A program made the translations under genes and the position numbers. A DNA stretch of 33,909 nucleotides. Origin: a virus. The notes under the pieces are model-generated. The model saw only the letters and a program-made list of their open reading frames with translations. It had not been told where the DNA came from and ran no database searches. Each line of letters begins with the position of its first letter. Positions within the stretch are counted from its first letter, which is position 1. This document shows positions 29,507 to 33,151 of the stretch, one piece after another. The stretch is from the UHGV virus genome UHGV-1464012. One strand, 5' to 3'.

Positions 29507-29836
29507 TTAGTCATCCATGGATGGATTGAGCTTATCTCGTGTTGATGTGGCAATTTTCCCAACATTTTTCAACCAAGATTTTAAGAAGGATATGTCGTCC
29601 TTAATATCATGAATATCCTCATTCTTTATACGATCAACCTTATCCTCTAAGCTCTCTATAGAACGCTCAATGCTAGACAGAGAGATTTTTAAGTCCCCTT
29701 GCTCACGTTCCAGTGAGGATTTGAGAGCACAATATTCGTTTTCTAGAATTCCTATTTTTTTTGTTAGAGAGTGCATTCGATACTCATACACCAAACCAGA
29801 AACGACTAATGCAGCCAACAGAAACCATTCAAGCAC
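29507..29836 (-). CDS. membrane-anchored coiled-coil protein (moron; candidate superinfection-exclusion or abortive-infection factor)
   Basis: N-terminal hydrophobic helix (LEWFLLAALVVSGLV) then charged heptad-like sequence; GTG start with a strong AAGGAGG 5 nt upstream; AT-rich; convergent with the gp16-like gene. Confidence 0.6.
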   Translation of the reverse strand: MLEWFLLAALVVSGLVYEYRMHSLTKKIGILENEYCALKSSLEREQGDLKISLSSIERSIESLEDKVDRIKNEDIHDIKDDISFLKSWLKNVGKIATSTRDKLNPSMDD

Positions 29837-30204: not shown

Positions 30205-30654
30205 GTGTTCATGCTTACTTGTTTTGATGTCGCCGACTACTTCCTGTCGCGGTGTGACGAGGATAGCGGTGACACAATCTCTAATTTAAAATTACAAAAG
30301 CTTGTTTATTATGCTCAGGGTTTTTCATTGGCGTTGCTTGGCGAGCCTCTTTTTCAGAATAAGATGGAAGCTTGGATGCATGGCCCTGTTGTCCCTGAGC
30401 TTTATCGCCGTTATAAACAATATGGTAATGGCGCTATCCCTTCTCCAGAGTCTTTTGATGCTGAAAAATTCAGCGAAGAACAGTTAGAGCTATTAGAAGA
30501 AGTCTGGGATGTTTTTGGGCAATTTTCTGCCTGGAAACTGAGGAACATGACACACGAAGAGTCACCATGGAGATCAAACTATATTGAGGGTGTTGGTGGT
30601 TCTGAAATTAGCTCTAAGGAGATGGCAGAGTACTTTGCAACTCGGATTAACTAA
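30205..30654 (+). CDS. Panacea-domain (DUF4065, SocA/GepA-like) putative antitoxin
   Basis: 149 aa; NLKLQKLVYYAQGFSLALLGEPLF...EAWMHGPVVPELY matches the DUF4065/Panacea signature as I recall it; GGAGG upstream of the GTG start. Confidence 0.7.
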   Translation: MFMLTCFDVADYFLSRCDEDSGDTISNLKLQKLVYYAQGFSLALLGEPLFQNKMEAWMHGPVVPELYRRYKQYGNGAIPSPESFDAEKFSEEQLELLEEVWDVFGQFSAWKLRNMTHEESPWRSNYIEGVGGSEISSKEMAEYFATRIN

Positions 30655-30658
30655 CGAG

Positions 30659-31078
30659 ATGGCAAGAAAATCTAAAAGGATTATCCCCCCTGCTGAATCT
30701 ACAGGTAAGTTAAAGTTAGGGCCGCAGTCAGGGGGGAATTCAGATCAAAAGAAACCGAAATTTTCATTCTGTTACATCCAAAGCTCTCACTGCATAACGA
30801 AATGCCAAAAAGATGAGAAAGCTGGCTTAGCTGATAAATTATACAGATTAAGTCAACTAACATGGGCAGAGATTAAGCAGCAAGGTAGGCATAAGCTTGG
30901 ATTTGAGAAGATTGCAAGGGGTGCAATTAAAGCTGGTATCCCCGGTCATATAACGGAAGACGTAGATCATTTCTTGGCTTTTAGATTTGATGATTTGAAA
31001 GCCATGGTTGGTTATCGTCTTGGATCGACATTTTTTGTTATATGGCTTGATAGAGAGTTCAACCTATACAAGCACTAA
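30659..31078 (+). CDS. putative toxin partner of the Panacea-domain protein (unknown family)
   Basis: Start 4 nt after the upstream stop (the track ORF begins earlier, at 30584); Lys-rich N-terminus; the C-terminus (MVGYRLGSTFFVIWLDREFNLYKH) loosely resembles RelE/ParE-type toxin ends; AT-rich. Confidence 0.5.
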   Translation: MARKSKRIIPPAESTGKLKLGPQSGGNSDQKKPKFSFCYIQSSHCITKCQKDEKAGLADKLYRLSQLTWAEIKQQGRHKLGFEKIARGAIKAGIPGHITEDVDHFLAFRFDDLKAMVGYRLGSTFFVIWLDREFNLYKH

Positions 31079-31080
31079 TA

Positions 31081-31107
31081 AAACCCACCGTCAGGTGGGT
31101 TTTTTAT
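31081..31107. terminator. bidirectional rho-independent terminator between the convergent toxin and ClpP-like genes
   Basis: AACCCACC-GTCA-GGTGGGTT stem flanked by an A-run upstream and a T-run downstream. Confidence 0.6.
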
Positions 31108-31130: not shown

Positions 31131-31667
31131 TCAAACAACCCACCAGTTTGCCTGATTGGATGCCAGCCTTGCAGTTTTTATGGAATTAATTATGCCATGC
31201 TCAAGAGCCTTGTTAGCATCCAAAATGGTCGAGTCTGCTATCAGGGATGCCCACCTAATATGGGTTCCGATGTCGATATTGAACGTCTCAACGAAGCGAT
31301 CAAGATCGTTATCGAGGCATTTCCCGTACTCTCTCAATCTGGCATGGTCGGCGGCTGGGGAGGCAAAGCACCATAATAGAGGATGTAACAGGAATCTTGA
31401 TAATGGGTTTGCGAAACGTTCTGAGCCAGCCAGGAAAACGATATTAGCTATGGATTCAACATTGCTTATGTTGTGAGTTCTAACGGTAACAGGGAGTGAC
31501 TTAAGAAAGTTATACGCAGTAAAGCCAGCGGCAGTTTCCCCTCCCTGACTTGATATATGGATATTTAATTCAGTTGCGCCTTGAGATAATGCGGTGAGAC
31601 AGTGGTTCTGAAGTTGCCCAACAGTGGCAGTGTTAACGGGGCATAAGAAATGAATTGTGTGCAGCAT
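31131..31667 (-). CDS. ClpP-fold serine peptidase-like protein (S14-like), co-transcribed with the mnt-like gene
   Basis: 178 aa; ISSQGGETAAG parallels the ClpP INSPGG motif; candidate Ser (VESIAN), His (LLHPL) and Asp positions; start overlaps the mnt-like stop (TAATG). Confidence 0.6.
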   Translation of the reverse strand: MLHTIHFLCPVNTATVGQLQNHCLTALSQGATELNIHISSQGGETAAGFTAYNFLKSLPVTVRTHNISNVESIANIVFLAGSERFANPLSRFLLHPLLWCFASPAADHARLREYGKCLDNDLDRFVETFNIDIGTHIRWASLIADSTILDANKALEHGIINSIKTARLASNQANWWVV

Positions 31668-31915
31668 TATTTTTCATCCTTAGCATACATGGTCTTTAGC
31701 GTCTCAAGTAGCGCCTCTTTGAATTTATCAGCTTCTTGGTTAGCGAATCCTTCAAGTGAGCGAGAGCCATCAAGATTATCAACATGTTTTTGAAGGATAA
31801 GCACGATCTCTGAGTTCATTGATCTGCCGTTTTTATCCGCTTCTTGCTGAATGCGTTTCTTTAAATAGTCTGGAATCCTAATCCCCAATGGACTGATATC
31901 TCTTGCACCTTTCAT
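31667..31915 (-). CDS. mnt: Mnt-like ribbon-helix-helix repressor
   Basis: Internal start MKGARDISPLGIRIP...EADKNGRSMNSEIVLILQ; the NGRSMNSE core matches P22 Mnt as I recall it; GGAGGAG precedes the start. Confidence 0.75.
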   Translation of the reverse strand: MKGARDISPLGIRIPDYLKKRIQQEADKNGRSMNSEIVLILQKHVDNLDGSRSLEGFANQEADKFKEALLETLKTMYAKDEK

Positions 31916-31940
31916 TTCTCCTCCTGCACGCTGTGCGTAG

Positions 31941-32010
31941 CTACACAGTGTAGGCAAAAAAATTTTGACTTTAAATAAACACGGTGTAGTATTTAGTTAT
32001 CACGGTGTAG
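31941..32010. promoter_or_regulatory. divergent mnt / arc-ant control region with three copies of CACRGTGTAG
   Basis: Perfect palindrome CTACAC-A-GTGTAG (31941-31953) plus two direct copies of CACGGTGTAG (31980-31989 and 32001-32010) spaced 21 bp, between the divergent RHH repressor genes. Confidence 0.5.
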
Positions 32011-32023
32011 CAAGCGAGGGGAA

Positions 32024-32164
32024 ATGAAAGTTAGAGACATCGCTCCATTAGGGATTCGTATCCCGCCAGAGATTAAAGAAAAATTGAAGGAAAAGGCTAA
32101 GGAGGAGGGCAGGTCTTTAAATTCAGAAATAGTGCAGCGTCTTATTCGCAGCCTAAAAAGTTGA
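32024..32164 (+). CDS. arc: Arc-like ribbon-helix-helix repressor (46 aa; absent from the ORF track)
   Basis: Hand translation gives MKVRDIAPLGIRIPPEIKEKLKEKAKEEGRSLNSEIVQRLIRSLKS; the EEGRSLNSEI core parallels P22 Arc; GAGG upstream; directly upstream of ant. Confidence 0.65.
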   Translation: MKVRDIAPLGIRIPPEIKEKLKEKAKEEGRSLNSEIVQRLIRSLKS

Positions 32165-32227
32165 AGCCCCAACTGCGGGAACAGTCAGGGCTTCGGTATC
32201 GTAAAACCACGCATAGGAATTAACGAC

Positions 32228-33151
32228 ATGACGAGTGTAGCAATTGCAGAACATACAATCAACGTTCCATTCCACGGAACAAATCTCTTTTTGGTCAGCA
32301 TTAACAATGAACCTTACGTTCCTATGAAACCCGTTGTAGAAGGCATGGGTATGGTTTGGGCTGCTCAATTTGTTAAATTAAAACAGAGATTTGTCAAAGG
32401 TATTTCGGAAATCGAAATACCTTCTGCTGGCGGTAAACAGTTAATGATATGCCTTGCCTTTCGTAAGTTTGCGGCTTGGCTTTCAAGCATTCAGCCAAAC
32501 AAAGTCCGCCCTGAAATCCGCGACAAGGTAATCCAGTATCAGGAAGAGTGTGACGATGTGCTCTACGAATACTGGACTAAAGGCCATGTAGTTAACCCGC
32601 GCAAAGCTAAAAAGGCATTGCCGGGGAAAATCACCACTGAACAGCAGGAAGCCATTAAACAACTCGTCATGAGTCGCGGTCAGTCTCTTCCAAAAGAAAA
32701 ACAGGCTAAGGCGATGATCACCATGTGGTCGTCACTGAAATCCCATTTTGGATGTTCGTACAAAGAGATCAGTGAGGAGCAGTTTACCGAAGCACTATCA
32801 CTTGCAGCTCGAGTTCCACTTGAAGGTGAGTTCATTGGCAAACAAGAGAAGAAAGCAAACGAGCTTTCTGCAAAAGAAGCAAACAGCCTTGTATGGTTAT
32901 GGGATTATGCCAACCGCTCACAGGCATTATTCCGCGAACTGTATCCGGCGCTAAAACAAATTCAATCGAACTATTCCGGCAGATGTCATGACTGCGGTTA
33001 TGAGTTCTCCCGTATTATCGATATGGCGAGAGATGTTTTAATCAACCATACACGAGATGTTGATATTAATGAGCCAGACGGACCAACGAATCTTTCCGCA
33101 TGGATGAGACTTAAGAATAAAGAATTACCTCCTTCAGTACATAACTACTGA
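32228..33151 (+). CDS. ant: antirepressor (Ant-like)
   Basis: 307 aa in the immI position downstream of the Arc-like gene and followed by a terminator. Confidence 0.75.
   Translation: MTSVAIAEHTINVPFHGTNLFLVSINNEPYVPMKPVVEGMGMVWAAQFVKLKQRFVKGISEIEIPSAGGKQLMICLAFRKFAAWLSSIQPNKVRPEIRDKVIQYQEECDDVLYEYWTKGHVVNPRKAKKALPGKITTEQQEAIKQLVMSRGQSLPKEKQAKAMITMWSSLKSHFGCSYKEISEEQFTEALSLAARVPLEGEFIGKQEKKANELSAKEANSLVWLWDYANRSQALFRELYPALKQIQSNYSGRCHDCGYEFSRIIDMARDVLINHTRDVDINEPDGPTNLSAWMRLKNKELPPSVHNY

Follow-up and report, generated by a model that had tools for sequence, protein, structure and literature searches.

The UHGV virus genome UHGV-1464012 (33,909 nucleotides, in the following called the window) raises the question why a gene for a ClpP-like peptidase should be joined to the gene of a Mnt-type repressor. 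On the minus strand a homologue of mnt coding for 82 amino acids (positions 31667-31915) is followed by an open reading frame (ORF) of 178 amino acids (positions 31131-31667), and the two overlap in the sequence TAATG (positions 31665-31669). An earlier note on this DNA had interpreted the pair as a repressor with a co-translated ClpP-like partner that could serve in defence or superinfection exclusion. We come to a different view of the pairing. The 178-amino-acid protein is probably a ClpP isoform of the type of ClpP1 from Pseudomonas plecoglossicida (PpClpP1), encoded by a cargo gene (moron) in the mnt operon, made in the lysogen and assembling into barrels.

Fold and active site of the ClpP-like protein

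The 178-amino-acid protein matched the Pfam family CLP_protease (PF00574) with 44.4 bits at a cut-off of 20.2, and the match begins at profile position 37. The AlphaFold2 monomer model, computed with a 26-sequence family alignment, reached a mean predicted local distance difference test (pLDDT) score of 91.2. In a Foldseek comparison with the PDB the chain 9uxt_A ranked first (template modelling (TM) scores of 0.91/0.89, root mean square deviation of 2.1 and 38% identity), and canonical ClpPs from E. coli, T. thermophilus and L. monocytogenes were found with TM scores of 0.77-0.81. Profile search and structure prediction were thus both positive for the ClpP fold that the earlier note had suspected. 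According to the model the product is a true ClpP fold, in the form of an N-terminally shortened and non-canonical paralogue.

Individual residues were assigned by explicit alignment mapping to E. coli ClpP, using 21 family members. Ser97 of E. coli ClpP corresponds to Ser72 and His122 to His95, and each of the two is invariant (21/21). Asp171 corresponds to Ser146: the column holds Ala in 11, Ser in 9 and Thr in 1 of the members and neither Asp nor Asn in any, and D145 and D150 close to Ser146 are not conserved in the family. When we looked for a Ser-His-Asp triad in this alignment, the Asp position was therefore non-acidic in all 21 members. From the candidate Ser, His and Asp residues named before, the Ser and the His stand as Ser72 and His95, whereas the Asp does not, its position being taken by Ser146. 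The sequence ISSQGG, which the earlier note had listed among the ClpP-like motifs, turned out to be the conserved Gly-Gly/oxyanion motif and not the site of the nucleophile.

The ClpP-like M1 aligns with residue 24 of mature E. coli ClpP, so that the first 23 residues are absent and with them the axial gating loops, which form the pore gate and contact the unfoldase. The positions of the IGF/LGF docking pocket are polar by alignment (Y60N, Y62H, F82S, I90H, L114N and L189K), and for L114N all 21 of the 21 family members carry Asn. At the C-terminus the residues NWWV are nearly invariant in the enterobacterial clade and form a β-strand in the AlphaFold2 model. For selection we compared the gene with a copy that has diverged to 80% amino-acid identity (L064, synonymous divergence dS ~1.6). 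The ratio of nonsynonymous to synonymous substitution rates (dN/dS) was 0.08, and by this measure the ClpP-like gene is a functional gene under strong purifying selection.

The closest characterised relative

The best sequence match in the PDB was again 9uxt, with a phmmer E-value of 1.6e-35 across residues 3-175 and 39.7% identity by tblastn. PDB 9UXT is PpClpP1, published in 2026 (PMC12900304). This protein is N-terminally truncated, its triad positions are S73-H96-P151, and cryo-electron microscopy and analytical ultracentrifugation identified a homotetradecamer with a pore of 42.7 Å (PMC12900304). The peptidase activity was 13-fold below that of the canonical paralogue; it was abolished by a Ser to Ala or His to Ala exchange and merely reduced by a change of the Pro, and ClpX was not pulled down by PpClpP1 (PMC12900304). 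Together with the canonical ClpP2, PpClpP1 co-purifies as a hetero-tetradecamer, which is more active and keeps the binding of ClpX (PMC12900304). Judging from sequence and predicted structure, the window protein is a member of a distinct ClpP subfamily, in which PpClpP1 is the sole member studied so far.

We also considered whether the PpClpP1 gene itself is phage-borne and rejected this: in three Pseudomonas/Azotobacter contexts the gene is chromosomal and has stress genes as neighbours. No close Pseudomonas copy was present in the phage collection, and in the viral contig set the relatives reached only 42-50% identity. Throughout the PpClpP1 clade (L115-L120, chromosomes of Pseudomonas and Azotobacter) we observed a conserved stand-alone gene. 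Its neighbours are small genes of the KGG-repeat, CsbD and DUF6555 types, which are typical of general stress regulons, and this context is not discussed in PMC12900304.

The joint with mnt

The upstream gene encodes a protein with a ribbon-helix-helix (RHH) N-terminus and a C-terminal coiled-coil tail. It matched Pfam Arc with 32.8 bits and phrog_2685 at 1e-31, and its full-length alignment with P22 Mnt (80 amino acids, C-terminal tail included) shows 33% identity (E 1e-12). The description as Mnt-like was thus correct: the protein is a real Mnt homologue, and it lies within a complete immI region. The gene starts with the ATG at 31915, with AGGAGG ahead of it. On the minus strand the joint reads ...GAA AAA TAA TGC TG..., with the TAA of mnt at 31669-31667 and the ATG of the ClpP-like gene at 31667-31665. 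The single base 31667 is common to the stop and the start codon and there is no gap between the ORFs; direct reading of the sequence therefore agrees with the one-base overlap and the coordinates reported earlier. A Shine-Dalgarno-like AAGGA lies ~11 nt 5' of the ClpP-like ATG, within the 3' end of mnt.

We found the TAATG joint in ~60 related loci of the viral contig collection, which are mostly near-identical over this stretch and cannot be taken as independent counts, and among the copies with 97-100% identity it is kept without exception. The diverged copy L064 also retains it, and so do loci in which the ClpP-like gene stands beside unrelated Mnt N-terminal alleles.

These alleles are informative about the nature of the link. 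Across the ~60 loci the ClpP-like protein is 97-100% identical, and the adjacent Mnt occurs in at least five DNA-binding alleles with 36-100% identity to the window Mnt; in one of them the first 53 residues are those of P22 Mnt. The alleles have only the last 13-25 residues in common (...EADKFKEALLETLKTMYGKDEK), which places a mosaic joint in the 3' end of mnt. The megablast matches to complete E. coli genomes agree with this, as most of them end at query positions 577-618. In two IMG/VR contigs (L037 and L043) the ClpP-like gene is preceded by tandem mnt-like RHH genes. The one farther from it is 98% identical to the window Mnt, and a different allele of 84-85 amino acids is TAATG-joined to the ClpP-like gene.

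The slot behind mnt is also occupied in other phages. In the P22 reference record orf59a sits between mnt and the terminator labelled mnt, so the statement that P22 mnt is monocistronic is not supported by the annotation. Phage Emek has two other small genes behind mnt and lacks the ClpP-like gene in an otherwise similar region, and the ClpP-like gene is likewise absent from this slot in P22. The module as a whole moves between phages: a four-gene unit of ClpP-like gene, mnt, arc and ant is 98% identical in the P22-like phages phiv205-1, E212 and EC.P3 and, between the tail genes L and K, in the lambda-like PhiR12 phages. We encountered the ClpP-like/mnt pair in 130 of 5426 complete E. coli genomes. 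A 100% identical pair is located in a degraded prophage of E. coli CE10 (L121, NC_017646.1 834318-835102), in which IS3 has inserted, the DNA-transfer gene is truncated and the tailspike gene is frameshifted.

The swapping of at least five Mnt alleles beside a ClpP-like gene with 97-100% identity, and the distant relatives without an adjacent Mnt described below, argue against the proposed Mnt-ClpP partnership. On the evidence of these comparisons the tie to Mnt is a link in gene expression, that is an operon slot, and not a functional partnership; what looks like a pairing of functions is a mosaic joint within the 3' end of mnt.

Terminator and expression

A bidirectional intrinsic terminator hairpin, AAAACCCACC-TGAC-GGTGGGTTTT, was identified by RNA folding at positions 31080-31103. 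It lies directly 3' of the ClpP-like stop codon and also closes the convergent Panacea gene pair on the other side. The 66 nt from 31070 to 31135 fold at -19.1 kcal/mol with a z-score of -3.3, and 0 of 200 shuffles were as good. The annotation of phage Emek gives a rho-independent terminator of the convergent operon at the homologous site. A simple terminator scan did not list the hairpin at 31080-31103, perhaps because the A/U runs pair with each other.

The promoter scan gave no promoter-like site within mnt. Because of this result and of the strong terminator after the pair, the ClpP-like gene would be expressed jointly with mnt in the lysogen. The arrangement suggests a two-gene mnt/ClpP-like transcript from a promoter of the Pmnt type, and by analogy with P22 we infer that this transcript is present in the lysogen.

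Distant relatives

Relatives of the ClpP-like protein with 51-75% identity were found between Rz/Rz1 and the small terminase gene in prophages of Klebsiella, Leclercia and E. coli, in each case without Mnt. Further relatives in this identity range, also without an adjacent Mnt, are located in a Proteus prophage (between N and erf/ssb), in Pantoea (among Mu-type tail genes) and in Chromobacterium (between tail-fibre and lysis genes). In every annotated distant context the ClpP-like gene is antisense to the surrounding phage operon. Both neighbouring ORFs are on the opposite strand in 30 of 51 distant-clade loci, a figure that comes from a crude ORF call on redundant loci.

The gene is therefore patchily present among similar phages, transcribed in the opposite direction to its surroundings and bounded by a terminator, which are the marks of a moron. 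Based on this distribution and layout, the 178-amino-acid gene is a prophage cargo gene.

In one group of E. coli prophages (L094-L101 and L109), where the ClpP-like protein is 51-52% identical, we observed an ORF of 182 amino acids on the same strand, 78 nt upstream. Its product matches phrog_5483 and, below the threshold, Pfam Abi_2 (14.6 bits at a cut-off of 25.6, E 0.042). The two genes form an antisense unit between HNH/terminase and Rz1.

Possible roles in the lysogen

We propose that the ClpP-like gene is a moron in the variable slot behind mnt of a P22-type immI region. It would be transcribed from the mnt promoter and its translation would be coupled to that of mnt, and the ClpP-like protein would therefore be made whenever Mnt is made in the lysogen. 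By analogy with PpClpP1 the product would most likely form a wide-pore tetradecamer with a weak, Ser/His-dependent peptidase activity, and this tetradecamer by itself would be unable to bind an unfoldase (ClpX or ClpA). It may also build mixed barrels with the canonical ClpP of the host and alter the output of ClpXP/ClpAP, as the behaviour of the 38-40% identical relative suggests. Candidate benefits for the lysogen are superinfection exclusion or defence, prophage stability and an effect on host physiology.

Several points weigh against this proposal. The mechanistic analogy comes from one paper on a chromosomal relative with 38-40% identity and stress-gene neighbours, and the third active-site residue differs, being Ser146 here and Pro151 in PpClpP1. 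The activity of Pmnt and the co-transcription are presumed from P22. The protein gave no match to a known defence system, and no phenotype has been described for any phage-borne member. For PADLOC-DB v2.0 (systems to 2023) neither the ClpP-like protein nor Mnt matched any family at E ≤1.

A further-reaching form of the proposal is that enterobacterial temperate phages spread an unfoldase-blind ClpP isoform made only in lysogens, whose mixed barrels reprogram ClpXP/ClpAP to the benefit of the prophage. We consider this form unlikely. If it were true, phages would remodel a core host protease by subunit substitution, with a benefit such as the exclusion of superinfecting phages or the stabilisation of lysogeny.

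There are several other possible explanations for a ClpP-like gene at this position. The protein might be an effector of superinfection exclusion or anti-phage defence, which breaks down the proteins of incoming phages or makes these phages fail by rewiring the Clp proteolysis of the host; this is possible, though we regard it as doubtful. In all prophage contexts that we examined, the position and orientation of the gene are of the lysogen type, it lies in the part of the genome that in P22 contains sieA and further prophage-expressed genes (PMC2629481), a toxin-antitoxin-like pair of the Panacea/SocA type adjoins it, and one E. coli subclade has the same-strand gene of 182 amino acids with its sub-threshold Abi_2 match. 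However, any lysogenic-conversion function would fit the position of the gene equally well, the PADLOC search at E ≤1 was negative, the searchable literature yielded no functional data, and the closest studied relatives are Pseudomonas chromosomal genes located among stress genes and not in defence islands. The defence or exclusion role put forward in the earlier note is thus compatible with the gene position only. We rate it as decidedly unlikely that the protein is a dominant-negative poison subunit or decoy, that is a near-inactive ClpP that co-assembles with or caps the host ClpP, lowers ClpXP/ClpAP activity and, in a manner similar to lambda RexB, stabilises phage or antitoxin proteins. 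The lost catalytic Asp, the absent gating loops and the polar docking pocket would all suit a poison subunit, as would the 13-fold lower activity of PpClpP1 alone and its failure to bind ClpX. A pure decoy would not need Ser72 and His95, though, and these are strictly conserved under strong purifying selection; moreover, the hetero-complex of PpClpP1 and ClpP2 is more active and still binds ClpX.

The coupling to mnt would find a direct explanation if the protease were a dedicated immI partner that safeguards the circuit after translation by acting on Ant, Arc or Mnt. The TAATG coupling, kept across diverged copies and different Mnt alleles, would agree with such a role, and so would the last 13-25 Mnt residues that travel with the ClpP-like gene. 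We nevertheless think it very improbable: the relatives with 51-75% identity occupy prophage positions without a nearby Mnt, Arc or Ant, the DNA-binding domain of Mnt varies between 36 and 100% identity beside an almost invariant ClpP-like gene, and the immI regions of P22 and Emek work without a ClpP-like gene. The explanation with the least credit is a head-maturation (prohead) protease, as annotated in phiv205-1, and we hold it to be almost certainly wrong. It can draw on the best PHROG match, phrog_94 'head maturation protease' at 7e-21, and on the GenBank label in MN340231. Yet the protein scored 49.3 bits with the NCBIfam model Clp_rel_HeadMat (NF045542), which has a cut-off of 120, and its gene belongs to the mnt operon, runs against the direction of the late operon and is a long way from the portal, scaffold and coat genes. 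The Leclercia prophage L107/L108 has a separate ClpP-type protease of 282-284 amino acids between portal and capsid, and heads of the P22 type mature without a protease. We rejected the prohead identity on the grounds of the NCBIfam score, the gene position and the separate prohead protease in L107/L108. A moron that supplies a PpClpP1-type isoform to the lysogen remains our preferred account.

The immI region and neighbouring genes

Judged by its gene content, the window is a P22-like (Lederbergvirus-type) prophage with a complete immI region consisting of mnt, arc, sar RNA and ant. The arc homologue of 46 amino acids (positions 32024-32164, plus strand) matched Pfam Arc with 49.1 bits. The gene for the sar antisense RNA (positions 32159-32226, minus strand) was found over its full length with the Rfam family RF00262 (84.6 bits at a gathering score of 43, E 1.9e-17) and has a terminator-like hairpin at 32194-32163. 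The antirepressor gene ant (positions 32228-33151, plus strand, 307 amino acids) matched P22_AR_N with 136 bits, P22_AR_C with 96 bits, and phrog_245. A homologue of the P22 gene 16 DNA-transfer protein is encoded upstream of the region, and in related phages tailspike sequence follows 3' of ant.

Between mnt and arc lies a divergent control region of 108 bp (positions 31916-32023), which we studied with a promoter scan and a repeat search. The scan gave a Pant-like promoter, TTGACT-16-TAGTAT, at 31965-31992 on the plus strand; a candidate Pmnt on the minus strand, TTTAAA-17-TACACT, was picked by eye. The motif ACAC(A/G)GTGTAG occurs three times (31943-31953, 31979-31989 and 32000-32010), one copy being a perfect 13-bp palindrome. 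The copies overlap the promoter-like hexamers and may serve as operators. The layout of the control region parallels the Pant, Pmnt, Oarc and Omnt annotated in the P22 record.

The 5' ends of mnt and arc, including the ribosome-binding sites, are inverted copies of each other (31880-31923 and 32016-32056), with 83% complementarity over arms of 24 nt and 93% over arms of 15 nt. This is why Mnt and Arc start with nearly the same β-ribbon, MKGARDISPLGIRIP compared to MKVRDIAPLGIRIP. Mnt and Arc may recognise the same half-site, present three times as ACAC(A/G)GTGTAG, whereas the P22 reference record annotates separate operators for the two.

On the other side of the terminator a two-gene pair (positions 30205-31078, plus strand) runs convergently towards the ClpP-like gene. 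Its first gene encodes a Panacea/SocA-like antitoxin-domain protein of 149 amino acids (SocA_Panacea, 87 bits), and its second a protein of 139 amino acids that matched phrog_8366 and, weakly, the PADLOC family NsnC (9e-06). Together the two genes resemble a toxin-antitoxin or defence pair of the PanA type. Their presence is not tied to that of the ClpP-like gene: Emek contains the pair, PhiR12 does not. Finally, directly 3' of the gene 16-type DNA-transfer gene we observed an antisense ORF of 109 amino acids (positions 29507-29836, minus strand), which occupies the position of sieA in P22. It matched phrog_5962 and otherwise had weak coiled-coil-type Pfam matches only; we regard it as a candidate for another lysogen-expressed cargo gene.

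Annotation and significance

In RefSeq the pair is labelled 'ATP-dependent Clp protease proteolytic subunit | Arc family DNA-binding protein'. The same gene is called 'head maturation protease' in phiv205-1 (L001, MN340231.1 10718-11254) and 'hypothetical protein' in the PhiR12 phages. Both 'head maturation protease' and 'ATP-dependent Clp protease proteolytic subunit' overstate what is known. We found no paper on the phage ClpP-like gene in the searchable literature. Already known are the ClpP subfamily, from which one chromosomal member was recently characterised, and the generic RefSeq annotation of the pair. What is new, as far as the searchable literature shows, is the subfamily as a lone, antisense and presumably lysogen-expressed cargo gene of enterobacterial temperate phages.

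ClpXP and ClpAP control a number of proteins that are relevant to phages, among them lambda O, the Mu repressor, antitoxins, RpoS and LexA fragments. If our interpretation is true, a phage that has a ClpP isoform made from its prophage in the lysogen would possess a simple means to retune host proteolysis. A substitution of ClpP subunits by phages was not described in the literature that we searched. The family is easy to test, as it involves a single small gene and a relative with a solved structure and biochemistry. The surprise of a Mnt partner dissolves; the testable question of a phage-supplied ClpP isoform stays.

Comparison with known systems

With the immI region of P22 the window has in common the leftward mnt, the rightward arc-ant and the antisense sar between arc and ant, a cargo gene 3' of mnt ahead of the terminator (orf59a in P22) and the location between the gene 16 homologue and the tailspike. 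Villafane et al. (PMC2629481) termed the mnt-arc-ant region of P22-type phages the 'ant moron', and the slot behind mnt is a recognised variable cargo region (PMC2629481). The cargo of the P22 'ant moron' consists of sieA, hkcC and orf59a. In the window, by contrast, the cargo is a TAATG-joined ClpP paralogue, whereas P22 orf59a begins 99 nt past mnt, and the same module is also found outside P22-like phages, between the lambda-type tail genes L and K.

The 51-75% identical relatives resemble morons of the lambda bor type in that they follow directly after Rz/Rz1 and are antisense to the late operon; bor has the same kind of position beside the lysis cassette. The proteins are unrelated, however, and Bor is a lipoprotein with a known role in serum resistance.

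Compared with E. coli ClpP (MEROPS S14), the window protein has the same fold (TM ~0.8), the nucleophile Ser and the general-base His, and it also keeps D134/H138 of the handle and the oxyanion motif GG. It differs in its low identity of ~21-25%, the 23 absent mature residues, the Ser in place of Asp171, the polar docking pocket and the lack of linkage between its gene and clpX.

Mixed barrels of ClpP isoforms are represented by ClpP1P2 of M. tuberculosis, ClpP1P2 of L. monocytogenes and ClpP1-ClpP2 of P. aeruginosa, as cited in PMC12900304. The concept is alike: a divergent, weak paralogue without an unfoldase docking site of its own forms one ring of a hetero-tetradecamer. The structures 4ryf, 6vgq and 7m1l were among our Foldseek fold matches, with 17-24% identity to the window protein. 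Those second isoforms are chromosomal paralogues of one cell, whereas the isoform described here would be supplied by a prophage. The E. coli host has a single ClpP.

The closest likeness is to PpClpP1. The two proteins have similar lengths (178 and 183 amino acids), both lack the N-terminal gating region, and both keep the Ser-His pair (S72/H95 and S73/H96) and carry a non-acidic residue in place of the catalytic Asp. They differ at the C-terminus, where the enterobacterial clade ends in NWWV and the visible end of the 9UXT alignment is APQW, and in their setting: PpClpP1 is encoded by a stand-alone chromosomal gene and the window protein by prophage cargo in an mnt operon.

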